Virus record (IMG/VR): IMGVR_UViG_2654587728_000015
Length of the DNA stretch: 39,903 nt
DNA from: a virus
Taxonomy: Duplodnaviria > Heunggongvirae > Uroviricota > Caudoviricetes
Strand: one strand, 5' to 3'
This document shows positions 10,315 through 38,333 of this stretch, piece by piece. Within the stretch, counting starts at the first letter, position 1; each line of letters begins with the position of its first letter. A program made the translations under genes and the position numbers. A model generated the notes under the pieces. The model saw only the letters and a list, made by a program, of their open reading frames with translations. It was not told the DNA's origin and searched no databases.

Positions 10315-10370
10315 AAAAAACCCGCCAAATCTGCTTTGTCAGTTATTTACATCGCAGAAGATGTGGCGGG
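10315..10370 (-). terminator. Candidate terminator after the moron gene (imperfect long hairpin CCCGCC...GGCGGG followed by TTTTTT on minus strand)
   Basis: GC-rich imperfect inverted repeat plus 6-T run between moron stop (10390) and gp43-like start (10299). Confidence 0.35.
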
Positions 10371-10389
10371 AACCTAATATTTTTAATTA

Positions 10390-10884
10390 CTATCTGAGTT
10401 GAACATCAATGGAATAAATATCACCACTCTTTATAAATTTAGAATCTGTCCTTTCATCAAAAGATTCAAATGACTGTACCTTTAAAAACTTTTTCATTTT
10501 ATTTTCAAAAATACTTTCATTAACACCAGTTAAATACTTGAACGCTCTACCAGCAAGGACCTCATTACTTAAATCCATTGTGTTTTTATTGTCTTTGAAA
10601 AACCAAACAATAACCTTTTGTGGGCATGATGGATTATAAACAGATATATAAAACTGCGGCTCATATTTTTCATCAGCGTCATCACTAAGCATTTCTTCAG
10701 AAGATAATTCTCTTCTGAATTCATATTGCCGCTTAGTTATTCCTTCATCCTTTATTATCTCTTGCTTAACTGGTGCAATACCTATAGAAGAGATTAATTC
10801 TGACTCATTAAAGCTGAACTTACACTCCTCCGCGGCCAAGTTAAAAGATAAAAGTGCAGATATAAAAAAAACAAAGATACGCAT
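10390..10884 (-). CDS. AT-rich moron: secreted/periplasmic protein of unknown function with N-terminal signal peptide
   Basis: ORF 10390..10902 with best RBS at internal ATG 10884 (MRIFVFFISALLSFNLAAEE...); hydrophobic signal peptide without lipobox; strongly AT-rich relative to flanking tail genes. Confidence 0.7.
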   Translation of the reverse strand: MRIFVFFISALLSFNLAAEECKFSFNESELISSIGIAPVKQEIIKDEGITKRQYEFRRELSSEEMLSDDADEKYEPQFYISVYNPSCPQKVIVWFFKDNKNTMDLSNEVLAGRAFKYLTGVNESIFENKMKKFLKVQSFESFDERTDSKFIKSGDIYSIDVQLR

Positions 10885-10904
10885 AATCATCCCTTCAATC
10901 ATTT

Positions 10905-10945
10905 GTAAGGAATGATTATATTAACTACTTAAAGCTGAAAACCCA
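10905..10945 (-). promoter_or_regulatory. Candidate moron promoter (perfect TATAAT -10 on minus strand ~25 nt upstream of RBS; weak -35)
   Basis: TATAAT hexamer (plus-strand ATTATA at ~10915..10920) in AT-rich intergenic region between tape measure stop and moron start. Confidence 0.3.
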
Positions 10946-10983
10946 AATTATGCCAGACAAAAACACATTAATCATTTTGTACA

Positions 10984-12816
10984 CTACCTGAACCGCGTAT
11001 AGCCAACATCATGGCTGACATCAAAACCGCTGGATCGCGTTTCCATAACCCGCATACCCGGAGGCGAATTCACAAAAGATACCTTGATCTCACCATCAAC
11101 TTTTGGCACAGAAGCTTTGTTAATCATGAAGGGATTCGAGCCTGTGGCATCGGAGGCGTTGTTTGCCTGAGCCGGATCCACCACCGGATAAGGAGTGTAT
11201 CCCCGTGGCGGTATTCCCGTCCCATAAGCATCATAAGCACCCGCGCCCCACTGCGCCGAGTTAATGGCATCGACCGTGTCACCGGAACTGTCGGTAAACC
11301 ATTCAATAATCGGCTTCAGCTTATCCCACATATCCTGAAACCACTTAACAACCGGTCCCCAGTTATTGATCACCATCCCAAGCGGCGACCAGGCAAAAAC
11401 CTTCTTCAGAAGTTCCCAGCCTGCCTCAAAATAAGGACCAATGGTTTCCCAGAGCTTCTTGAAATAAGGTCCGACAACATCCCAGTTAGTGATAATTAAT
11501 CCCGCAGCCAGAGCAATCGCCGTCGCAATCATGCCAATCGGCGTCATCGACATAATCCTGCTGACAATACTGATGGCACTGCCCACGCCCATCAATCCCA
11601 GTTTCAGAATCGCAAGACCGGCAGCAAGCCCGACGACGCCGCGAATAACCCGGGGATTTTCATCCGCAAACTTCGTGAATTTCTCCCCCAACTCCCCCAG
11701 CCATTGTGTGATATTTTTAGCGTCACCAGAAAATGCGCCGCCAATAGCCGCAAGGCCGTTAGTTGCGGTCCCTGTCATTGCCTCCCACAGGTTGGACAGC
11801 GTACCAAGCTGTGCCTGAACACGTTTATTCAGGCTGGCCTGTTTATTCATCTTCTGCTGGATCTGATCGTAGCCATCCTTTCCTTTATCGATTAGTGCAT
11901 TGACCACCTGAAGGGTTTCGGCATCATCACCAAATATTGCCTTAAGTACACCTGTTCGCTTAACGTCGGTCAGTTTTCGCAGCTTTGCCAGTTGCCTGAA
12001 CATGTTATCAAGACCGCCAAAACTTCCTTTGCCGTCAGTAAAATCGAGCTGTACCCCGAGTTTCTGGCGGGCCATAACTTTATTAACGTCCCTGATTTTC
12101 TTAACGCTTAATCCGGACTGGATAACTTTTCGCAGGGCATTACCTGCCGACTCCCCGTTCATCCCCATCTGATCCATCATGACGCTGATGGGGGCAAGGC
12201 TCTGTGCAGCCTGAAGACCGTCCTTGTTCACCATCTTCAGAACAGAACTGGTTTTAGTGAAGAAGGACAACATGTTGGTATCGTCAACGCCCAGATAAAA
12301 CGCCTTCTGGATAGTGTCGAACAGCCCCATCATGTCTTCTGACGCCGTTCCGGTAGCATCCTGCATCTTTGCAGCAAACTCAGCAGCCGCTTCCGGTGTT
12401 TTTTTCAGTTGTACCGCAAGATAAGCTGTCGCTTTACCCACACCGCCAAGAATGTTTTCTGCCGGGATCCCCTGACGCACCAGCATCTGCATCATGTTCT
12501 GGAAATCAGCCGTTGTACCGGGTAGCTGGTTACCCAGGCCAATAGCCAGTTTATTGATGTCCTGAAAGCGCTTTCCAACCTCGCCGTTCGCATCCATCAT
12601 GGCGACTTTCAGCCCGGTGGCGGCGTTTTCCTGATCGGCATAAGATTTCAGGGAAAGCGTCAGACCCGCTGCCAGTCCGCCACCAAGCGCCAGCCCACCC
12701 TGTGACGCTTCTTCCGCCTGGCGTTTAAATCCCCGGATTTTCTTTTGCATTTTCGACAGCGCGGGAGAAAGCCTGTCGACACCGGTGATCAACGCCTTAA
12801 GCTCAAATTCCGCCAT
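10984..12816 (-). CDS. Tail tape measure protein
   Basis: 610-aa ORF with long helical N-terminal part and glycine/hydrophobic C-terminal region; follows tail chaperone with frameshift. Confidence 0.85.
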   Translation of the reverse strand: MAEFELKALITGVDRLSPALSKMQKKIRGFKRQAEEASQGGLALGGGLAAGLTLSLKSYADQENAATGLKVAMMDANGEVGKRFQDINKLAIGLGNQLPGTTADFQNMMQMLVRQGIPAENILGGVGKATAYLAVQLKKTPEAAAEFAAKMQDATGTASEDMMGLFDTIQKAFYLGVDDTNMLSFFTKTSSVLKMVNKDGLQAAQSLAPISVMMDQMGMNGESAGNALRKVIQSGLSVKKIRDVNKVMARQKLGVQLDFTDGKGSFGGLDNMFRQLAKLRKLTDVKRTGVLKAIFGDDAETLQVVNALIDKGKDGYDQIQQKMNKQASLNKRVQAQLGTLSNLWEAMTGTATNGLAAIGGAFSGDAKNITQWLGELGEKFTKFADENPRVIRGVVGLAAGLAILKLGLMGVGSAISIVSRIMSMTPIGMIATAIALAAGLIITNWDVVGPYFKKLWETIGPYFEAGWELLKKVFAWSPLGMVINNWGPVVKWFQDMWDKLKPIIEWFTDSSGDTVDAINSAQWGAGAYDAYGTGIPPRGYTPYPVVDPAQANNASDATGSNPFMINKASVPKVDGEIKVSFVNSPPGMRVMETRSSGFDVSHDVGYTRFR

Positions 12817-28115: not shown

Positions 28116-28913
28116 TCAATGAACGGTATCGAGCAACTTTAACAGCTCAGGGAATCGGGATTCGAAAAAGTGCGGCTGCGTCTCGCGCGGATTTGCGGGA
28201 CTGGTGATGTTCTTGCCGAACATGCAGCCTTTCGCTGTCAGCGACCAGAATTTTTTGATGTTGTTAATCGCGGTACGGCTGTATCGTTCGCGCTGCTCGA
28301 CGATCCCCAGCTTCACCATCTGGTGATATGCCTGATTAGCTGTCAGGCGGATACCATACTGCTTCAGCAGTGCACTCAGTGACAGCGTGGGGCGGCTTGA
28401 GCCATCAGGCGCGTCAGCAGGAGCATCAATGGCATAGCGCGGTGCCAGATTCGGTAAGCCAACAGCCTCCTGGAGTTTCTGACAGGCTCCAAGCACTGAA
28501 GAGTTAGACAGGTTTAATTCCCGGCGCATAAAGTCCAGCAGAATCACACCAGCCTGCATCTTGTCAGCAGCCTGTCCGGATAATTTTTCCGGTGCGCTGG
28601 TTACCATGTCGAAAGTACGGATCACCTTCAGATGGAATGACGGGCTTATCCACATTGCATAGGCATACACCAGTTCTTTGCAGACATACGTCCCCTGGTT
28701 ATTTCCGCCACGAATAACGTTAACTGGCTCTATATTGACCGAGTTGCAAATCTGCAACTCGCTTATTAAACGTTCAGTTTGCTCATTGCGGAGCCAGAAT
28801 GCAGGCTTATGCTTATCCAGAGAACCGGCAGCCCTGTGCAGATCGTTCAGGCTGTAACGACCATAAGCATCACGACGAACTTCAATACCATCAATGACCA
28901 TCAGATTATTCAT
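28116..28913 (-). CDS. KilA-N domain protein
   Basis: ORF 28116..28946; start taken at ATG 28913 with SD AGGAG; N-terminal KilA-N-like region (MNNLMVIDGIEVRRDAYGRYSLNDLHRAAG). Confidence 0.7.
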   Translation of the reverse strand: MNNLMVIDGIEVRRDAYGRYSLNDLHRAAGSLDKHKPAFWLRNEQTERLISELQICNSVNIEPVNVIRGGNNQGTYVCKELVYAYAMWISPSFHLKVIRTFDMVTSAPEKLSGQAADKMQAGVILLDFMRRELNLSNSSVLGACQKLQEAVGLPNLAPRYAIDAPADAPDGSSRPTLSLSALLKQYGIRLTANQAYHQMVKLGIVEQRERYSRTAINNIKKFWSLTAKGCMFGKNITSPANPRETQPHFFESRFPELLKLLDTVH

Positions 28914-29645: not shown

Positions 29646-30295
29646 GCCGCCATCTCCCTGACAAGTTTTTCCGCCTGCTGGCGAACCTGCGCCAGAAACG
29701 CCTCACCACATGCCTCAAGTTCATCGCGCCCGATGTAGCTGATTGCCGGTCCCTTCCAGGTCTTGTCGAAAACAGCAATAGCACCAGCGAAGAAAGCGCC
29801 TGTCGGCACCTGCTTCTCATCCTTCGGGATAAACCAGGCAGGCAGTTCAAAACCAATACGCCCGCGAATAAAAGCAATATGGTCTGCATCTTCCGGCCAC
29901 CAAACTTCGCTGGTGGCAGCTTTGATCAGGAAAACATAGCGCCCGCCTTTATCACGCATAGCACTGGCATGTTTCATGATGTAACGCATGCCGGTGATGT
30001 ATTGCCCCTCATGCTGACTGGCGCGGCTGTACGGGGGATTACCAAAGGCAGCACCTTTAAGCTCCGCAAGACGTTCTGACCAGTCATGCGCCAGCGCGTT
30101 GTCTTCCGCAGTGTAATAAGCGGCACATTTGGCGTTATCACCATCAGTAAACAGATCCAGAACAAACGGGCCAAACAGGGTGTTAATTCCCCAGAAAATG
30201 TTGTCCGGCGTGCGCCACTGATCGCCCACTTCCTTCAGTTCATGGGCTGGTTTGTTCCGCAGCTCCACCAGCGCCTGGCAATATTTATTACTCAT
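29642..30295 (-). CDS. Phage Dam-type DNA N6-adenine methyltransferase
   Basis: ORF 29642..30328 with ATG at 30295; motifs WRTPDNIF and NPPY. Confidence 0.8.
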   Translation of the reverse strand: MSNKYCQALVELRNKPAHELKEVGDQWRTPDNIFWGINTLFGPFVLDLFTDGDNAKCAAYYTAEDNALAHDWSERLAELKGAAFGNPPYSRASQHEGQYITGMRYIMKHASAMRDKGGRYVFLIKAATSEVWWPEDADHIAFIRGRIGFELPAWFIPKDEKQVPTGAFFAGAIAVFDKTWKGPAISYIGRDELEACGEAFLAQVRQQAEKLVREMAA

Positions 30296-30783
30296 TAAGC
30301 CCCCACGTAATTCCCTGACAGATACCACTCTTCACCCGATGCAGCGCGCTTGCTGCTTTTCCGTAAGCACCGCTCACGATGCGCCAGAAAATTGTTTCGT
30401 TCTGGCTGGGAGTGGCTTTCACGGAATGCCTCCATCCACACCGTTGCAGCTCGACGGAATAAGCCCCTGGACTCCAGTTCTTCAGCCTGGCGGGTCAGGC
30501 ACAAAATCACCCGGGGGTCGTTAGTGCCGACATAGAAATTGCGCACAGGTCTGGTTTCACGAACAGATTGTGGTTCCGGCTCCTGCGCTCTCTCAGTCAG
30601 GCGCGGGAAATGTCTGCGTGTATCTCCTTCACAACGGTGAGCCACACGCCCACTCTGACGTAACTTGCTTGCTGACTGCAGAACGCGCTGCCGTGAGTAA
30701 CCTGCAAAAGCATCCGCAATGTCTCCGGAAGTACACCCCGGATGGGCTTCAATGAATTTCTGAACTTCATTCAAAAGACTCAT
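30295..30783 (-). CDS. Hypothetical early protein with possible PerC/ANR-like C-terminal motif
   Basis: ORF 30295..30789 with ATG at 30783; segment AEELESRGLFRRAATVWMEAF resembles ANR/PerC signature; assignment tentative. Confidence 0.45.
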   Translation of the reverse strand: MSLLNEVQKFIEAHPGCTSGDIADAFAGYSRQRVLQSASKLRQSGRVAHRCEGDTRRHFPRLTERAQEPEPQSVRETRPVRNFYVGTNDPRVILCLTRQAEELESRGLFRRAATVWMEAFRESHSQPERNNFLAHRERCLRKSSKRAASGEEWYLSGNYVGA

Positions 30784-30785
30784 GA

Positions 30786-31592
30786 TCACCCCCTGAATCC
30801 TGCCGGGATCTGGCTGTAGTCCACGTTGTCGTAACTGGCTTTGAAGTACGGGTCCTCACGTCTGACTGCAGATACCGCAGGAACTTCCCAGGATTCTTCG
30901 AAATGACGATCCGGACCAAAGAACGTGACAGCCTGTTTCACAAATTGTGTGCCGCTGTTACCCATCGCAGATACCCAGCCCGCATAGCGTTTCACACCTT
31001 CCAGCATGGTTTCGGGGTTTACCCCCTCATTCAAACGGGCTTTCCAGGCTTTGAAGGCTGCAGATTTTGAATTGCCACCAGCACGTTTGGGATATGCCAG
31101 CCATGCCTGCTCAAACTCCGGAGAGTATTCCGGTCGGTTTGAACGAACTCGCACAGACTCATCAGCAGATGCACCAACAGCTATTGGTTCATTGACTGGT
31201 TCAAAAGAGTGACTGGTTCTGGGTGAATCTCCTGCACTACCCCCTGGTGCAACTCCTGCACTACCTGGTGAATTTGCTGCACCAGATAGTGAATTATTTG
31301 CACTACCCCCTAGTGAATCTCCTGCACCATCAAGATGAAGAAGATAGATATTACTTGAGTTACCTTTTTCACCTTTCCGGGTGACTTTTTTTACCAGCCC
31401 GGACTCACAGAGGGCCGCAATATGATTCATCACAGAACGTTTGCTAATCTCGCACTGATCAGCGATATGCTGATAGCTGGGCCAGCACTCGCCCTGATCG
31501 CTGGCATTATCAGCCAGCTTGATCAGAACCAGTTTTCGCAATGGATTACCCACTCGAATTTTCATCGCTTTAACCATCAGCTCCATACTCAT
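30786..31592 (-). CDS. Replication initiator (lambda O-like organisation: N-terminal HTH domain, repeat-encoded linker, C-terminal domain)
   Basis: 268-aa ORF; N-terminal winged-helix region; iteron array embedded in the central linker coding region; SD GGAGGTG. Confidence 0.65.
   Translation of the reverse strand: MSMELMVKAMKIRVGNPLRKLVLIKLADNASDQGECWPSYQHIADQCEISKRSVMNHIAALCESGLVKKVTRKGEKGNSSNIYLLHLDGAGDSLGGSANNSLSGAANSPGSAGVAPGGSAGDSPRTSHSFEPVNEPIAVGASADESVRVRSNRPEYSPEFEQAWLAYPKRAGGNSKSAAFKAWKARLNEGVNPETMLEGVKRYAGWVSAMGNSGTQFVKQAVTFFGPDRHFEESWEVPAVSAVRREDPYFKASYDNVDYSQIPAGFRG
31222..31327. repeat. Iteron array: about five ~20-bp direct repeats (consensus RGTGAATCTCCTGCACTACC) inside the initiator gene, flanked by an AT-rich stretch (31328..31375); candidate origin of replication
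   Basis: Direct repeats read at ~31222, 31245, 31266, 31287, 31311; encode Gly/Ser/Ala-rich linker. Confidence 0.6.
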
Positions 31593-31813
31593 GCTGCACC
31601 TCCGAGATGCTTCATGTTTTTTCCGGAGCGAAAGGCTATAAGCGGCATACTGACGCGGTAACTACGGCCCAGCGGTTCACAAATCACCTTCTGACATTCA
31701 CGGTCAACCAGGCTAACACGTAGAACATGCCCTGCAGGTGTGGTGTACCACTGACCCGGACGAGGACAACGGAAAGTCTGATTGGTAAACCGTTTGAAAA
31801 TATTCCGGATCAT
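31589..31813 (-). CDS. Hypothetical small early protein
   Basis: 74-aa ORF, ATGA-type overlap with downstream initiator gene. Confidence 0.45.
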   Translation of the reverse strand: MIRNIFKRFTNQTFRCPRPGQWYTTPAGHVLRVSLVDRECQKVICEPLGRSYRVSMPLIAFRSGKNMKHLGGAA

Positions 31814-32046
31814 TTGCGCCCCCTTACCTCTGAAGGGTTCAGCGACAAATTTATGAGGCAGGCCAGTGCCGAAGCATCATTAATATAGTCATACAAGCTA
31901 ACAGCCAGCGGAGATTCGGCTTTTGCCAACATAGGATAAAGCTGCTGCAGCCAGACCTGATGAATTGATGAAATGTAGGAATAGAGAACGCTGGCGTTAT
32001 GTGCAACGTCGCTCAGTACAGAGGGATTTGAAAGTTGTTTCTCCAT
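31810..32046 (-). CDS. Hypothetical small early protein
   Basis: 78-aa ORF in early operon, overlapping neighbours. Confidence 0.45.
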   Translation of the reverse strand: MEKQLSNPSVLSDVAHNASVLYSYISSIHQVWLQQLYPMLAKAESPLAVSLYDYINDASALACLINLSLNPSEVRGRK

Positions 32047-32961
32047 CTAGTTAAAGGCATTGATGTATGCCTCTTTGAACTGGGCAGCACGTTTACCCGT
32101 GAAACCCATAGCAAGAAACGCAAAGCCGTCGCGGGTTATTTGGTAGCAAGGAAGTTTGCGACCTGTGCAATCAGTGTAATCACTCACCGAAAAATTGCGG
32201 GCAGTGAATGATGCTGAGCATTCAAGCGTGCGGATCTTTTTCAGTACATCGTCATGACGTTTGGAGAAGAAGTTGGCAACAGCCAGGGATGAAGTAACAG
32301 CCTGACCATCAACGATGGCAATTTCAGGTTGAGTGAGGGTTGGGATCGTAGCCATGATGGCAGCCTCTTTGGTGATTTTTAATAACTCACCACCAAGGCT
32401 TTCCACGACCTTATTGGTGGTGAGACGTACAGGGGTGGAAATACCGGTCACCAAAGAACCCGGCCCAACCGAAGTTGGCCCTGTACGCCCCACCATAATT
32501 TGGGCGTAATGCTGCTCATGACACAAAAAAACCGCAAGAGCGCGGTTGTGCGCTTTGGTGAATTCCGGGTTTCCACGCCCGGCACCCGTTTTATAAGGTG
32601 CCTGAACAGTGTAACGTCCCGGAATGGCAGAATCAATGTGCTGGTGGTCCTTCACACTCAACAAAATCACGCCTGAATTTCCACAAAGGACTAAAGCACT
32701 CATGCGGGTAGTCTTTGCGAAGATAGATAACGCGCTGTGTTTCTGGTTCCCAACGAATAACATGGACATAAAGCCCTCTTCCGTCACGAAACCAGCGGTT
32801 AAGTTCCTGCACAACTCGCCCCCCACAGTCAGGTAAAGTTCTCTGTGGTTACTTACAGCCAGGTGATTTGGTAATCTGCATTCATGCCGTAACAACAAGT
32901 GTTCAGCGACACTGACCACCAGCTGTTGCGACAAACGGTTATTTGCCGTTAAACTGTTCAT
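32047..32961 (-). CDS. Rha/AntA-family phage regulatory domain protein (domain in C-terminal ~100 aa; N-terminal 200 aa unknown; possible internal start at 32355)
   Basis: C-terminal segment ...SSLAVANFFSKRHDDVLKKIRTL...YQITRDGFAFLAMGFTGKRAAQFKEAYINAFN matches Rha-type domain; internal SD AAGAGG plus ATG at ~32355. Confidence 0.55.
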   Translation of the reverse strand: MNSLTANNRLSQQLVVSVAEHLLLRHECRLPNHLAVSNHRELYLTVGGELCRNLTAGFVTEEGFMSMLFVGNQKHSALSIFAKTTRMSALVLCGNSGVILLSVKDHQHIDSAIPGRYTVQAPYKTGAGRGNPEFTKAHNRALAVFLCHEQHYAQIMVGRTGPTSVGPGSLVTGISTPVRLTTNKVVESLGGELLKITKEAAIMATIPTLTQPEIAIVDGQAVTSSLAVANFFSKRHDDVLKKIRTLECSASFTARNFSVSDYTDCTGRKLPCYQITRDGFAFLAMGFTGKRAAQFKEAYINAFN

Positions 32962-33509
32962 GCGTTAGTTTCTCCACAGACACAAAACGCCACGACGCCC
33001 GGAGCTGCACACTCGCGGGCGTCACTCTTTTCTGGAGCGCAGAAGATTTTGTAGACCAGTGCTGCATGTTCCTGGAGCTTCGAAATTGACAGATACAACT
33101 CATCATTAATTGCTGTCTGCTCGTGTGGCTCCACGACCCCATCTTCGATTGCCGAACGAATCTGCTTTGAGTAATTCCCGATCTGTTCGATGACTTCCAG
33201 CAGGCGCTGGTTTATATCGGCGTTCTCTACTTCATCAATTTCAGGAAGCGATACGAACACCCCACCAGCAGACTGTGCGACAGCATCCGCAATGTAGTGA
33301 GTGCCAGCCGCACGCTGTAAAACCATTGCCCATCCCAGCGGGAAAATCTGATCGCCATCTGCACGAAGGCGGTTGAATAAAGCGTTCTCTGTTACATCCA
33401 GCCAGTCAGCAGCTTCAGCGTAACCCCCAGGCAATGCCGCGATAGTTTTTCTGACAGCTTTCACGTACCACTCAGGTTGTTTTTCCACTTTCCAGTGATG
33501 CTTACCCAC
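32958..33509 (-). CDS. Hypothetical protein in the cII-equivalent position (possibly YdaT/CII-analog family)
   Basis: 183-aa ORF immediately after cro, apparent GTG start with strong SD AGGAGGT; family assignment by position only. Confidence 0.5.
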   Translation of the reverse strand: MGKHHWKVEKQPEWYVKAVRKTIAALPGGYAEAADWLDVTENALFNRLRADGDQIFPLGWAMVLQRAAGTHYIADAVAQSAGGVFVSLPEIDEVENADINQRLLEVIEQIGNYSKQIRSAIEDGVVEPHEQTAINDELYLSISKLQEHAALVYKIFCAPEKSDARECAAPGVVAFCVCGETNA

Positions 33510-33859: not shown

Positions 33860-34552
33860 ATGAACATAGGAAATCGAGTCAGACAACTTCGCCAGGCGAA
33901 GAACATGAAAATCGCCGATCTCGCTGAAGCAATAGGAGTGGATGCGGCGAATATCTCGCGCCTCGAAACAGGTAAGCAGAAACAATTCACTGAACAAGCC
34001 CTGAGTAATATTGCCAGGAGCTTAGGTGTTGATATTGCTGATCTCTTTACCTCAGACCTCAAAAGTAATACTGTATGTAAAAACAGTATTAGTGAGGATG
34101 TTGCGCAGGTGAAGGATGTATTCCGTATTGAAATGCTGGATGTCAGTGCCAGTGCGGGAAATGGCCTTATCCAGGGCGGTGATGTCATTGATGTGATTCA
34201 TGCCATTGAATACAGAACTGATAATGCTGTATCGATGTTTGGTGGACGACCAGCAAATCACATTAAAGTTATCAACGTTCGTGGGGACAGTATGTGTCCA
34301 ACCATTGAGCCAGGAGATCTCATCTTCGTTGATATCAGTATCAATCAGTTTGATGGGGATGGTATATATGTATTTGGTTTTGATGATAAAATTTACGTCA
34401 AACGACTGCAAATGATACCTGATAAACTGCTGGTAATTTCTGATAATCAGATTTACCGCGAATGGGGAATTACCAGCGAAAACGAACACAGGTTTATGGT
34501 CTTTGGAAAGGTCTTAATCAGTCAGTCACAAACCCTTAAGCGACACAATTAA
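33860..34552 (+). CDS. cI: CI-like prophage repressor (HTH plus LexA-like S24 autopeptidase domain)
   Basis: 230-aa ORF; N-terminal HTH (IADLAEAIGVDAANISRLE), C-terminal GDSM serine and KRL lysine of S24 fold; no obvious SD, consistent with leaderless PRM-type transcript. Confidence 0.85.
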   Translation: MNIGNRVRQLRQAKNMKIADLAEAIGVDAANISRLETGKQKQFTEQALSNIARSLGVDIADLFTSDLKSNTVCKNSISEDVAQVKDVFRIEMLDVSASAGNGLIQGGDVIDVIHAIEYRTDNAVSMFGGRPANHIKVINVRGDSMCPTIEPGDLIFVDISINQFDGDGIYVFGFDDKIYVKRLQMIPDKLLVISDNQIYREWGITSENEHRFMVFGKVLISQSQTLKRHN

Positions 34553-35682: not shown

Positions 35683-36507
35683 ATGTCTCAGAACTTAGAC
35701 TCAACCGCAATTAATCAAATCCATGCCCTTATTTCTGCTCAGGGTGTTAATGAAATTATCAGTAAGATTGGTGCCGATGCTGTGGCATTGCCTGAGAATT
35801 TCCGCATTCATGATCTGGAAAAATTTAATTTAAATCGTTTCCGTTTCCGTGGTGCACTTTCCACTGCCAGCATCGATGACTTTACCCGTTATTCTAAAGA
35901 TCTTGCAGATGAAGGCACCCGCTGCTTTATCGATGCCGATAATATGCGAGCCGTCAGTGTGCTTAACCTGGGTACTATTGATGAACCAGGTCACGCAGAT
36001 AACACCGCCACTCTCAAACTGAAAAAGACAGCACCGTTCTCTGCTCTGTTGTCTGTTAATGGCGAGCGTAACTCCCAGAAGTCACTGGCAGAATGGATTG
36101 AAGACTGGGCAGACTACCTTGTGGGCTTTGATGCTAATGGTGACGCCATTCAGGCAACCAAAGCGGCTGCGGCGATCCGTAAAATCACAATTGAAGCGAA
36201 CCAGACCGCTGATTTTGAAGACAATGACTTCAGCGGCAAACGCTCCCTGATGGAGTCTGTCGAAGCGAAGACCAAAGACATTATGCCAGTGGCATTTGAA
36301 TTTAAATGCGTTCCGTTTGAAGGTCTGAAAGAACGTCCGTTTAAATTACGCCTCAGCATTATCACTGGCGATCGTCCTGTACTGGTTCTGCGCATTATTC
36401 AGCTGGAGGCGGTGCAGGAAGAAATGGCTAACGAATTTCGTGATCTGCTTGTTGAGAAATTCAAGGACAGCAAAGTAGAAACCTTTATTGGTACTTTCAC
36501 CGCCTGA
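35683..36507 (+). CDS. yfdQ: DUF2303-family prophage protein (YfdQ-like)
   Basis: 274-aa ORF; length and sequence recall E. coli CPS-53 YfdQ; SD GTGAGGA. Confidence 0.6.
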
Positions 36508-36634
36508 TTTCATTACTGCAAATGCCCCTGCGGGGGCATTTATGGAAACGTAATTTACTCAATAATCGCCGGATGGTGAGGGATTCTTTTTACCAGAATT
36601 CAGCGCGGTGCAGCGCATATACGTGGAGAACAAA

Positions 36635-37171
36635 ATGTCATTTATCAAAACTTTTTCTGGGAAGCATTTTTATTATGACAGGATAAATAAAGACGACATC
36701 GATATTAACGATATCGCGGTTTCCCTTTCAAATATCTGTCGCTTTGCCGGTCATCTTTCGCACTTCTACAGCGTCGCCCAACATGCGGTTCTTTGCAGCC
36801 AGCTGGTGCCGCAGGAATTTGCTTTTGAAGCGTTAATGCATGATGCAACAGAAGCGTATTGCCAGGACATTCCCGCACCACTGAAACGCCTTCTTCCTGA
36901 CTATAAACGGATGGAAGAAAAAATAGACGCCGTAATCCGTGAGAAATACGGGTTACCACCGGTTATGAGTACGCCCGTGAAATATGCCGATCTCATCATG
37001 CTGGCAACCGAACGCCGCGATCTCGGGCTTGATGATGGCTCTTTCTGGCCTGTACTGGAAGGTATCCCGGCAACAGAGATGTTCAACGTGATTCCACTGG
37101 CTCCAGGCCATGCCTACGGGATGTTTATGGAACGCTTTAACGAATTATCGGAGTTACGCAAATGCGCATGA
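36635..37171 (+). CDS. yfdR: HD-domain phosphohydrolase, YfdR-like 5'-deoxynucleotidase
   Basis: ORF 36608..37171 with ATG at 36635 (SD GGAGAA); HD motif (HLSHFYSVAQHAV...MHDATEAYCQD); 178 aa. Confidence 0.7.
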   Translation: MSFIKTFSGKHFYYDRINKDDIDINDIAVSLSNICRFAGHLSHFYSVAQHAVLCSQLVPQEFAFEALMHDATEAYCQDIPAPLKRLLPDYKRMEEKIDAVIREKYGLPPVMSTPVKYADLIMLATERRDLGLDDGSFWPVLEGIPATEMFNVIPLAPGHAYGMFMERFNELSELRKCA

Positions 37172-37524
37172 ATGTTTTCGAAATGGAAGGATTTCTTCGC
37201 GGGAAATGTGTACCGCGAGATCTGAAAGTGAATGAAACGGATGCTGAATACCTGGTGCGTAAATTTGATGCGCTTGAAGCTAAATGTGCAGCACTGGAAA
37301 ACAAAGTAATACCAGTGTCAGCTGAACTGCCGCCAGCGAATGAAAGTGTTCTGTTATTTGATGCTAATGGAGAAGGCTGGCTGATTGGCTGGCGTTCTCT
37401 CTGGTATACATGGGGGCAAAAAGAAACCGGAGAATGGCAGTGGACATTTCAGGTCGGGGACCTTGAAAACGTCAACATCACTCACTGGGCAGTAATGCCA
37501 AAAGCACCGGAGGCTGGAGCATAA
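37162..37524 (+). CDS. yfdS: Hypothetical protein (YfdS-like)
   Basis: 120-aa ORF following HD hydrolase gene, as in CPS-53. Confidence 0.55.
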   Translation: MRMNVFEMEGFLRGKCVPRDLKVNETDAEYLVRKFDALEAKCAALENKVIPVSAELPPANESVLLFDANGEGWLIGWRSLWYTWGQKETGEWQWTFQVGDLENVNITHWAVMPKAPEAGA

Positions 37525-38333
37525 TGACCACATTTACCGATAAAGAACTGATTAAAGAAATCAAAGAACGAATCAGCAGCATGGACGTGCGAGACAATGT
37601 TGAGCGCCGTGCTTATGAAATTGCTCTGGCATCGCTGGAAGAGGATCCGGTGGCATGGCTGCATTCAGACAATGGCTTAGGTATTCCGGCAATAACCAGG
37701 AGTAAAAACATTGCTGACAGTTGGTTATCAAAGGGCTGGTATGTTCAGCCGCTATATATAGCCAAGCCAGTGCCGGTGGTGCCAGATGCTCGTCCGTCTT
37801 TAAATAATGGCATAGTCGGTTTTGATGAAGGCTGGAACGCCTGCCGCGCTGCCATGCTCTATGGTGCCGTACCTGCAAGCCAGGCTTACAAGTTGCCACA
37901 AACGCAGTTTAAACAGGTTGCTGACCTCTACGAAATGCAATTTGATGACGGTCGCACTTGTGCCTTTCACACTGATGCGCAAAAGGCTGTGCAATGGCTT
38001 CAGGCGTGCGACGGAAACAGGGTTCAGGAATACGTTAAGCTGGAACGATTGCAGAACGCACTGTCTGGCAACTCTCCGGTAACTCCGGATGGTTGGGTTA
38101 TGGTGCCGAAGAGACTAACAGCCGAGAACGGCGCTAAGGGGGCGCTATCCGGTGAATTTTCAGAAACTACGTTTATAAGCTGCCTGGAATGCTTTGGCGA
38201 TGATGATTGCGATACCTGTGACGGGAGCGGACGTATTGAAATTAAAGTGCCAGTCACGTGGTCGACCATAAAATCTATCTGGGATAAAGGTATCGAGTAT
38301 TTTGCAGCAAAACCATCACAAGAGGTGAAGTGA
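37524..38333 (+). CDS. Hypothetical protein with C-terminal DnaJ-like CxxCxGxG zinc-finger
   Basis: 269-aa ORF; C-terminal CLECFGDDDCDTCDGSGRIEI. Confidence 0.6.
   Translation: MTTFTDKELIKEIKERISSMDVRDNVERRAYEIALASLEEDPVAWLHSDNGLGIPAITRSKNIADSWLSKGWYVQPLYIAKPVPVVPDARPSLNNGIVGFDEGWNACRAAMLYGAVPASQAYKLPQTQFKQVADLYEMQFDDGRTCAFHTDAQKAVQWLQACDGNRVQEYVKLERLQNALSGNSPVTPDGWVMVPKRLTAENGAKGALSGEFSETTFISCLECFGDDDCDTCDGSGRIEIKVPVTWSTIKSIWDKGIEYFAAKPSQEVK

Follow-up and report, generated by a model that had tools for sequence, protein, structure and literature searches.

A probable replication origin inside the initiator gene of a loader-less lambdoid prophage, and a DnaT-like tail that may dock the host helicase

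How would a phage that carries its own initiator and origin, and no gene for a helicase, a helicase loader or a primase, bring the helicase of its host to the viral DNA? The question is raised by a 39,903-nucleotide stretch of tailed-phage DNA (IMG/VR record IMGVR_UViG_2654587728_000015; the whole stretch is called the window below), in which a replication initiator gene (30,786–31,592, minus strand) holds an array of direct repeats in its linker-coding middle. Our best explanation, to which we give a probability of about 75%, combines an intragenic lambdoid origin with a host helicase docked by the C-terminal tail of the initiator.

The strongest tandem array of the window, as scored by Tandem Repeats Finder, lies at 31,223–31,327 (period 24/21, 4.6 copies, score 77), and a second, separate repeat search returned the identical five copies. 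These copies, (T/G)AGTGCAGGAGATTCAC(T/C)A, occupy 31,221–31,335 on the gene (minus) strand. All of them match GTGCA-N5-TKCAC, start at gene nucleotides (nt) 266, 290, 311, 332 and 356, with a start-to-start spacing of 24, 21, 21 and 24 nt, and have their dyad cores at 31,223–31,237, 31,247–31,261, 31,268–31,282, 31,289–31,303 and 31,313–31,327. The pattern is found at these five sites only in the whole window, with 6 matches in all, as the one perfectly palindromic copy counts twice; 0.34 matches are expected, and none of 100 shuffles reaches 6. The locus shows two features of a lambda-type origin: at least three dyad-symmetric direct repeats of about 18–24 bp, phased by about two helical turns, and their placement within the initiator's own coding sequence, in the interdomain linker. 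The residues coded by the repeats are approximately 89–124 of the 268-amino-acid (aa) open reading frame (ORF), at the start of its disordered stretch.

We compared silent sites between the window gene and relatives from Aeromonas (phage AsXd-1), Citrobacter (L097) and Raoultella (L098). The N-terminal domain has an amino-acid identity of 0.88–0.90 to these three relatives and a third-position identity at conserved residues of 0.46–0.51; in the C-terminal domain the latter value is 0.45–0.50. In the iteron segment the amino-acid identity is 0.69–0.75, the nucleotide identity 0.88–0.91 and the third-position identity at conserved residues 0.96–1.00. As the protein is less conserved here and yet the DNA is more conserved, the constraint acts on the DNA. 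The iteron columns are invariant in the cross-genus nucleotide alignment, and the GC content at third codon positions (GC3) is 0.05–0.20 over codons 71–150, compared to 0.43 for the whole gene.

Every HTH_36 relative that we examined has dyad repeats of its own at gene nt ~260–380 with the same 21/24 phasing: CCTAGTGACAAAATGTCACC in Vibrio D67, GTAGTGACACAGAGTCAC in mEp044, GGGGCAGGAGCTGCCC in Stx2a F451, AAAGCACACCCCCTGTGCC in Salmonella S135 and TATGCCGCCAAAAAGCATAG in Stenotrophomonas BUCT708. The initiator of locus L353 is 96% identical to that of the window over the last 140 aa, compared to 48% over the recognition helix and wing (aa 48–74), and its gene carries five iterons of another type, CTGTGYCGTCARAAAGCAYAG. 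The number of repeats is polymorphic as well: proteins 90–99% identical to that of the window differ in length (242–302 aa) solely by repeat-coded insertions and deletions, from about one to about nine units, and variable repeat number is a known behaviour of the lambda and P22 origins (PMC8022706). The preliminary description of this DNA had already placed about five direct repeats in the linker-coding middle of the gene, beside an AT-rich stretch, and had read them as an iteron origin. Repeats and AT-rich stretch are both present where it put them, and its reading is backed by all the comparative tests that we ran, namely silent sites, co-variation, position and spacing, and copy number. We therefore consider it very probable, from sequence comparison, that the repeats are the replication origin of an SfV/mEp460/CPS-53-type lambdoid prophage, located inside its initiator gene; silent-site conservation and recognition-helix co-variation also suggest, indirectly, that the initiator binds the iterons and that replication starts there.

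Two flanks of the array are candidates for the site of unwinding. The first is an AT-rich tract, A-rich on the sense strand, at 31,329–31,395 (minus strand), which is promoter-proximal to the iterons and codes for the wing ...KKVTRKGEKGNSSNIYLLHLD. Its 40-nt segments go down to 27.5% GC at 31,329–31,371, compared to a window average of 51%, and only 1.4% of the window's 40-nt segments are as low as that. The tract has a GC3 of 0.10–0.20 with three CTT leucine codons, and its silent sites are unevenly kept (0.90, 0.50 and 0.36 in the three comparisons). The second is a promoter-distal conserved block, CCCAGAACCAGTCACTCTTTTGAACCAGTCAATGAACC, at 31,165–31,222 (minus strand), with GAAYCAGTCA repeats at 31,210–31,219 and 31,193–31,202. 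This 10-mer has 2 matches in the window against 0.11 expected, and 68 of 80 relatives have three copies where the window has two. Silent-site identity of the block to the relatives is 0.79–0.87, the sequence CCCAGAAyCAGTCACTCTTTTGAACCAGTCAwwGAAyCAGTCAwwGAAyC is nearly invariant from E. coli to Aeromonas, and in L353 the 12-mer block is unchanged despite the swapped iterons. Most relatives have at most 30% GC in the block, the window about 40%. Because of its silent sites, its 12-mers, its AT-richness in relatives and its constancy in L353, we count 31,165–31,222 as part of the origin, and it is the more likely site of unwinding or helicase loading, with the proximal AT tract as the alternative. 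The AT tract had been described as part of a lambda arrangement, which holds in so far as it adjoins the repeats; it is promoter-proximal, on the side opposite to that of lambda, where the AT region comes after the iterons as O is transcribed (L010), and it is the flank conserved at the DNA level that lies promoter-distal, as in lambda.

Two further properties of this region were recorded. Within the AT tract, on the plus strand (31,369–31,391) and hence antisense to the initiator gene, there is a terminator-like hairpin, TCACCTTTCCGGGTGA and then CTTTTTTT; a scan of the region found 7 such sites against 4.2 expected, and the hairpin may be due to chance or else be an inverted repeat belonging to the origin. 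GATC sites are not clustered, with three of them in the N-terminal coding part, not above the density of the window.

The initiator encoded around this array is, by its ORF, Pfam, PHROG and AlphaFold evidence, a 268-aa protein composed of an HTH_36 winged helix, a disordered linker, a helical C-terminal domain and a flexible tail. Pfam HTH_36 (PF13730) matches residues 17–67 with an E value of 1.7e-11 and 44.1 bits, compared to a gathering threshold of 25, and PHROG 270, 'replication initiation protein', matches with an E value of 3.8e-88. The AlphaFold2 model, built on a 120-sequence alignment, has a mean predicted local distance difference test score (pLDDT) of 81.6, with values above 90 at residues 1–88 and 155–240, 44–55 at residues 90–150 and 57–67 in the tail, which is flexible. 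The N-terminal winged-helix domain (aa 1–88; 31,329–31,592, minus strand), delimited by Pfam, AlphaFold and Foldseek, is presumably the iteron-binding module; its Foldseek matches are winged-helix DNA-binding proteins only, the DnaD N-terminal domain among them. The C-terminal helical core (aa 151–240; 30,873–31,142, minus strand; modelled with pLDDT above 90) carries the motif YPKRAGGN...ATFFGPD and is presumed to face a partner. This core is common to 4525 representative clusters, and its PHROGs matches carry the labels 'DnaD-like helicase loader' and 'primosomal protein'; compared to the PDB, it gave no significant structural match. Matches of the whole initiator to subtilisin-like proteases in a solved-structure sequence search were rejected, being low-complexity matches through the linker and meaningless.

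The protein had been called an O-like initiator. The name is apt for the arrangement of an origin within the gene and does not extend to sequence homology with lambda O, as the protein combines HTH_36 with a different C-terminal domain: it has no Pfam match to Phage_rep_O or Phg_2220_C at E<0.01, and tblastn with lambda O gave an E value of 1.5. The locus shares several features with the lambda ori/O/P system. In both, dyad iterons lie in the linker-coding middle of the initiator gene (PMC8022706), the two-domain initiator has its DNA module at the N-terminus and that for the helicase-delivering partner at the C-terminus, the gene belongs to a rightward early operon after cro and cII, the iterons have an AT-rich or low-stability flank, and the repeat number varies among relatives. 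On the other hand, lambda has four iterons of 18–19 bp and the window five with a 21/24-bp period, the HTH_36 N-terminus has no detectable sequence relation to O, and the window has no P gene; its initiator ends in another domain with a DnaT-like tail, whereas lambda O ends in ...TDWIYGVDL.

The absence of a loader extends beyond lambda P. We used DnaC, YdaV, two DnaC-like proteins, two DnaB-like proteins, two primase-helicases and lambda P as tblastn queries and found nothing in the window, and Pfam and PHROGs revealed no loader or helicase gene among the initiator's neighbours. The same queries found nothing in 80 IMG/VR relatives, which are viral-contig copies 97–99% identical by alignment search and serve for the loader count rather than for diversity; the latter was sampled from representative clusters and with a back-translated tail pattern. 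The early-left operon has YfdQ/R/S/T-like genes and an exonuclease, and no replication proteins. The remark in the preliminary description that no DnaC- or P-like loader is evident nearby is thus borne out. Immediately downstream of the initiator, where a lambda-type module has a dedicated helicase-delivery gene, there is a PerC-like gene instead. With an initiator and an origin and no phage helicase, loader or primase, the module is of the loader-less 'initiator-only' kind, a category that Weigel and Seitz reportedly set out in 2006. A phage lacking all three must use the host DnaB.

A candidate for the missing connection is the extreme C-terminus of the initiator, NVDYSQIPAGFRG-COOH (30,789–30,827, minus strand). 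The protein ends in SQIPAGFRG and E. coli DnaT in SQIPPGFRG, so that 8 of 9 residues are identical, in both cases at the very end of the chain, and the initiator conforms to the DnaT extreme-tail pattern ...(S/T)xPDxxIPPGFRG-COOH. In longer form, DnaT ends in ...VNTVSEPDSQIPPGFRG and the class of the window in ...NVDYSQIPAGFRG; more distant members of the core family are closer to DnaT, for example ...VNHVSEPDTEIPPGFRG, with 13–15 of the last 17 DnaT residues matched (tails compared by eye). The likeness concerns the tail and not the single-stranded-DNA-binding three-helix domain of DnaT (PF17948), for which the initiator gave no Pfam match, an hhalign probability of 2% and no DnaT among its fold matches; in the same Pfam search, PF17948 does match DnaT itself and the phage protein of L160. 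L160, L169, L176 and L184 are a separate observation: these ~270-aa viral proteins have a true PF17948 domain (61–63% identity to E. coli DnaT over 94–97 aa) together with the same tail, and are phage-borne DnaT homologues with an added N-terminal domain. A RuvC-like gene comes next after three of the four.

Within the C-terminal core family the last ~25 residues fall into discrete classes, and we compared these classes with the genes that follow. None of ten lineages with an ...IPxGFRG tail has a DnaB-like gene. Eight of the ten are followed by a gene of the 245–249-aa DnaC family (P0149, P0151, P0167, P0192, P0216, P0135, YdaU–YdaV and DnaT–DnaC); L109 and L110 were counted as DnaC on the basis of Pfam IstB_IS21 and size, and the eighth lineage is DnaT with DnaC itself. 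Five phage copies of DnaC (YdaV and L092–L095) are 248–249 aa long and 48–50% identical to E. coli DnaC over the full length of the latter. The remaining two lineages, the window family and L108, are loader-less. The other tails (...GFSEQDYGQSDCNW, ...SDDFGESGENLNF, ...KFGKSSDKLTF and ...REYGQTQSPAWARGNQ) are followed in 6 of 6 lineages by a 291–297-aa DnaC-like gene and then a DnaB-like helicase gene; the DnaC-like proteins (four compared, and that of L008) are 30–33% identical to DnaC in the AAA+ part only. The presence of a DnaB-like gene therefore differs between DnaT-type and other tails as 0/10 versus 6/6 (Fisher p 1.2e-4, for lineages that are not fully independent).

Lambdoid modules with the same initiator and another tail allow a direct comparison. 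Phage AsXd-1, the Stx2a phage 12E129_yecE and Klebsiella/Citrobacter prophages have initiators 68–88% identical to that of the window, with the same iterons (TAGTGCAGGAGATTCACTA in AsXd-1, spaced 24, 21, 21 and 24 as in the window), the same spacing and the same 12-mer block. They differ in the last ~25 residues, which are of the ...GFSEQDYGQSDCNW, ...SDDFGESGENLNF or ...KFGKSSDKLTF type, and in the DnaC-like (291–297 aa) and DnaB-like genes that come after. Loci L102–L105 are particularly informative: they have the upstream genes, N-terminal domain and iterons of the window, and differ only in the tail and in the genes downstream, a DnaC-like and DnaB-like pair.

A back-translated search of viral contigs for IPPGFRG followed by a stop gave 80 loci, all of them C-termini of initiator-like ORFs. 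They comprise at least five architectures: the window-type core, HTH_36 with Phg_2220_C, a DnaT-domain protein, DUF1376 and two 320-aa types. A YdaV-type DnaC comes next in 36 loci, DUF977 in 34, a RuvC-like gene in 3 and a PerC-like gene in 1, and a DnaB-like or P gene was found in 0 of the 80. As one initiator type occurs both with and without DnaC, the phage copy of DnaC looks dispensable. In the sampled species genomes, where chance matches dominate outside Enterobacteriaceae and were removed by ORF length, the real ORFs with this ending all come from enterobacterial genomes, apart from one metagenome-assembled genome whose only label is 'Proteobacteria'; each encodes DnaT or a prophage initiator, with DnaC as the next gene. 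Other partners go with other ends. The initiators beside primase-helicases (F451, S135) share the tail ...KPSSAITVSKTGYVFFDR, and those of BUCT708, with a DnaB-like helicase next, and of mEp044 share ...F(D/L)(Y/F)L(M/L)KP(E/K)TLR(N/D)TR(E/A)G(S/A)L. Judging from these loci (L005, L006, L007 and L009), partner-specific initiator C-termini seem to be a general rule.

Known relatives of this design show how its parts combine elsewhere. Rac YdaU–YdaV and similar pairs of initiator and DnaC have the same type of tail (YdaU ends in ...VNTVSLPDSAIPPGFRG), the same place after cro- and cII/YdaT-like genes and the use of host DnaB; in contrast to the window phage they have their own DnaC orthologue (YdaV, 50% identical to DnaC), and the YdaU N-terminus is the unrelated DUF1376 instead of HTH_36. 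E. coli DnaT–DnaC has a near-identical tail and a dnaT–dnaC gene order that mirrors that of tailed initiator and DnaC, although DnaT recognizes forks bound by PriA/PriB and not iterons, and has a PF17948 domain that we could not detect in the initiator of the window. Iteron plasmids such as pSC101 (RepA), R6K (pi) and RK2 (TrfA) place a winged-helix initiator on direct repeats and use the host DnaB–DnaC with no loader of their own. Their origins are intergenic, usually with DnaA boxes, and their copy number is controlled by handcuffing, whereas the origin of the window is intragenic and has no DnaA boxes. Finally, in the domesticated lambda O/P-like pair DopC–DopE, DopC is described, in the accessible text of Brezellec et al. 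2017 (PMC5509034), as HTH_36 with a DnaT C-terminal motif, and therefore DnaT-like ends on O-like proteins are not wholly new. DopC is nonetheless chromosomal, with no iterons and with a P-like partner, and its DnaT element is a structured domain (PDB 2ru8); that same portion of the article does not mention the extreme tail (PMC5509034).

Based on these comparisons, replication of the window phage would proceed as follows. Dimers of the N-terminal winged helix would bind the five dyad iterons, two helical turns apart, and form an O-some-like complex. Strain in this complex, together with rightward early transcription through the gene, would open the adjacent low-stability flank, most likely the distal GAAYCAGTCA 12-mer block, or else the promoter-proximal AT tract. 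The phage, having no helicase, loader or primase, would use the host DnaB, and its initiator's C-terminal domain, above all the flexible DnaT-copying tail ...SQIPAGFRG, would dock the host DnaB6–DnaC6 at the opened origin. All phages with such tails would rely on the DnaB of the host, with a DnaC of their own or the host's as its loader, and the window phage would depend on the host's. The recruitment of host DnaB–DnaC by the tail is the step on which we are evenly divided; the contact is deduced from tail identity and tail/partner co-variation. More tentative still, and slightly short of an even chance, is the wider proposal that ...IPxGFRG is a portable docking peptide for enterobacterial DnaB–DnaC, common to DnaT and at least five unrelated prophage initiator architectures, which would make the window prophage a DnaT-mimicking loader-less replicon.

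Several points weigh against this explanation. We found no experiments on this replicon in the literature, and a paper on the replication regions of Stx phages states that nothing is known on the replication proteins of such non-lambda modules (PMC8951638). The lineages behind the tail co-variation are not phylogenetically independent, and their neighbourhoods are partly co-inherited. The strongest AT tract is promoter-proximal while the conserved distal block has only about 40% GC in the window, and the side of unwinding is uncertain for this reason. No DnaT–DnaC contact is documented (PMC5778457, PMC11087952), and in a 2026 cryo-electron microscopy study of the preprimosome it is the N-terminal domain of DnaT that is proposed to recruit DnaB/DnaC (PMC13377028). 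The route by which the preprimosome recruits DnaB/DnaC is stated as unknown in reviews and recent papers (PMC5778457, PMC11087952, PMC4132743, PMC13377028). The IPxGFRG tail motif had no mention in the literature that we searched.

The alternative that survives best keeps the origin and changes the function of the tail, which would bind PriA or PriB, or replace DnaT in the PriA–PriB complex, so that DnaB–DnaC would come by the restart route. The known contacts of DnaT, which shares the tail, are indeed with PriA and PriB according to the accessible text of the structural study (PMC13377028), whereas a contact with DnaC is the undocumented one (PMC5778457, PMC11087952), and pBR322 and phiX174 use DnaT-dependent primosomes (PMC4132743). 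The contacts given in that text are made, however, by the C-terminal domain of DnaT on PriA and by its interdomain linker on PriB, with no mention there of the extreme tail (PMC13377028). Moreover, both in phages and in the host operon it is DnaC orthologues that accompany the tail, never PriA- or PriB-like genes, and an initiator that opens DNA has no need of a factor that recognizes forks. We therefore regard the restart route as unlikely.

A second alternative looks to the next gene. On the minus strand, the order is cro, a CII-like gene (CP76), a Rha/Ash regulator, a 78-aa ORF, a 74-aa ORF, the initiator and then the PerC-like gene (30,295–30,789), whose start overlaps the initiator stop; Dam, a LexA-domain protein, RusA, a KilA-N-like regulator, DUF968 and Q follow. 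The PerC-like protein has 164 aa, with a winged helix and a PerC domain (yfdN-like). It had been described tentatively as PerC/ANR-like, and this is upheld: Pfam PerC (PF06069) matches residues 100–151 with an E value of 2.5e-8 and 34.5 bits, above the cut-off of 22.6, and NCBIfam ANR matches weakly, while PHROG 1324 is labelled 'transcriptional activator'. In E. coli genomes the neighbour gene is labelled yfdN, its name in the K-12 cryptic prophage CPS-53. As a translationally coupled protein it could be a new helicase adaptor that replaces lambda P or DnaC, since it sits in the loader slot of other lambdoid phages, with the overlapping start, and is conserved in 79 of the 80 related loci; L168, an unrelated initiator of the Phg_2220_C type with a DnaT tail, also precedes a PerC-like gene, with a 4-nt overlap. 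Against such a role stand the PerC, ANR and 'transcriptional activator' matches and the lack of an ATPase or known DnaB-binding domain. The gene is missing from L353, L108 and DUF977-type solo modules, and in other loader-less modules with the same tail the slot is filled by DUF977, a RuvC-like gene or Dam. As DUF977 also lies downstream of DnaC where DnaC is present, the slot is simply that of the next gene. The PerC-like gene is thus probably a transcription factor outside the origin, and a helicase adaptor is improbable.

Another observation concerns the same pair of genes. A database protein of 436 aa (P0028) is a fusion of the initiator and the PerC-like protein (Pfam HTH_36, PerC and MarR_2), which is probably due to a frameshift or read-through at the overlapping stop and start and shows how closely the two genes adjoin.

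A third alternative denies the origin itself: the repeats would be the DNA shadow of a flexible Gly/Ser/Ala-rich linker selected as protein, and the true origin would lie elsewhere in the prophage. It is true that they encode a low-complexity, disordered linker, GDSLGGSANNSLSGAANSPGSAGVAPGGSAGDSP, whose length is evidently free to vary. Yet silent third positions are 96–100% kept in the repeats, compared to about 50% in the structured domains, where amino acids are kept better. Inside the dyad cores alanine is always coded by GCA and serine always by TCA. The dyad core makes sense for DNA and none for a peptide, the repeats change as a set along with the recognition helix, and no second array of comparable score exists in the window. 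This alternative is very improbable, and the intragenic origin stands. We hold it just as improbable that host DnaA opens the origin and brings DnaB–DnaC with the phage protein as a mere specificity factor, for although pSC101 and RK2 have DnaA boxes in addition to Rep-bound iterons, the 1.3 kb on either side of the array contain no DnaA box with 1 mismatch or fewer (the closest lie at 32,970 and 28,813), and the 12 such boxes in the whole window compare with 8.2 expected. The sole perfect DnaA box of the window, TTATCCACA at 28,646–28,654, falls within the gene for the KilA-N-like regulator, at a distance of 2.6 kb from the origin, and is probably there by chance.

The remaining features of the neighbourhood have less direct bearing on the origin. 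The 74-aa ORF (31,589–31,813, minus strand; PHROG 1153, function unknown) lies directly upstream of the initiator with a stop/start overlap. It weakly resembles residues 32–73 of the long DnaC-like loader of AsXd-1 (pairwise E value 3e-5, 29% identity with a 10-residue gap; E value 0.014 against the window), and we considered it as a relic helicase-binding module replacing the loader. We rejected this, since the ORF also precedes the initiators of L102–L105, which have the DnaC-like and DnaB-like genes; it is kept upstream of the initiator in loader-less and loader-bearing modules alike. Further upstream, the Rha/Ash-type regulator (31,810–32,961, minus strand) is apparently split by an in-frame TAG at 32,047–32,049 with an ATG directly after it. 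Of the 324-position profile of PHROG 821, the 304-aa ORF covers positions 2–245 and the next, 78-aa ORF positions 247–324, which points either to a nonsense mutation or to a protein encoded here by two genes and in relatives by one. A cI-like repressor is encoded at 33,860–34,552 on the plus strand. In the early-left operon (35,683–38,333, plus strand) there are a YfdQ-like gene (PHROG 210), a YfdR-like gene (dNMP phosphatase, PHROG 318) and two more ORFs. According to the abstract of PMC4776307, YfdR of E. coli K-12 binds DnaA, and chromosomal initiation is inhibited when yfdQRST is overexpressed; the phage may also interfere with host initiation through its YfdQ/R-like genes. Far from the origin, in the late/tail region, a stretch of ~600 bp (10,369–10,986, overlapping the ORF at 10,390–10,902) has many 40-nt segments of at most 27.5% GC and is compositionally foreign to the remaining prophage.

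The module is widespread. The initiator is 97% identical to SfV orf39 and to the mEp460 'replication protein', and the module as a whole is 97% identical to those of SfV (a Shigella phage), mEp460, Stx2c- and Stx2k-converting phages and phage 1720a-02. Among 5426 complete E. coli genomes, the initiator gene has a match in 2720, and in 897 of these the match spans 80% or more of the gene.

As an origin, the locus is an ordinary, textbook lambda-like arrangement; the prophage family to which it belongs is very common and of medical relevance, and includes Stx2c- and Stx2k-converting phages and Shigella serotype-converting phages. Its location is useful for annotation and for the study of induction and copy number in toxin phages, a group in which non-lambda replication regions are described as uncharacterised (PMC8951638). 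The wider interest lies in DnaT-tail mimicry as a possible answer to how a loader-less phage recruits the host helicase. Partner-specific tails on modular initiators would provide a simple rule by which the helicase system of a prophage can be predicted. The DnaT-type tail also bears on the old question of how DnaT hands DnaB–DnaC to the restart primosome: if the tail is a portable docking peptide, it would be through its last ~15 residues, which are unmodelled, that DnaT recruits DnaB/DnaC.

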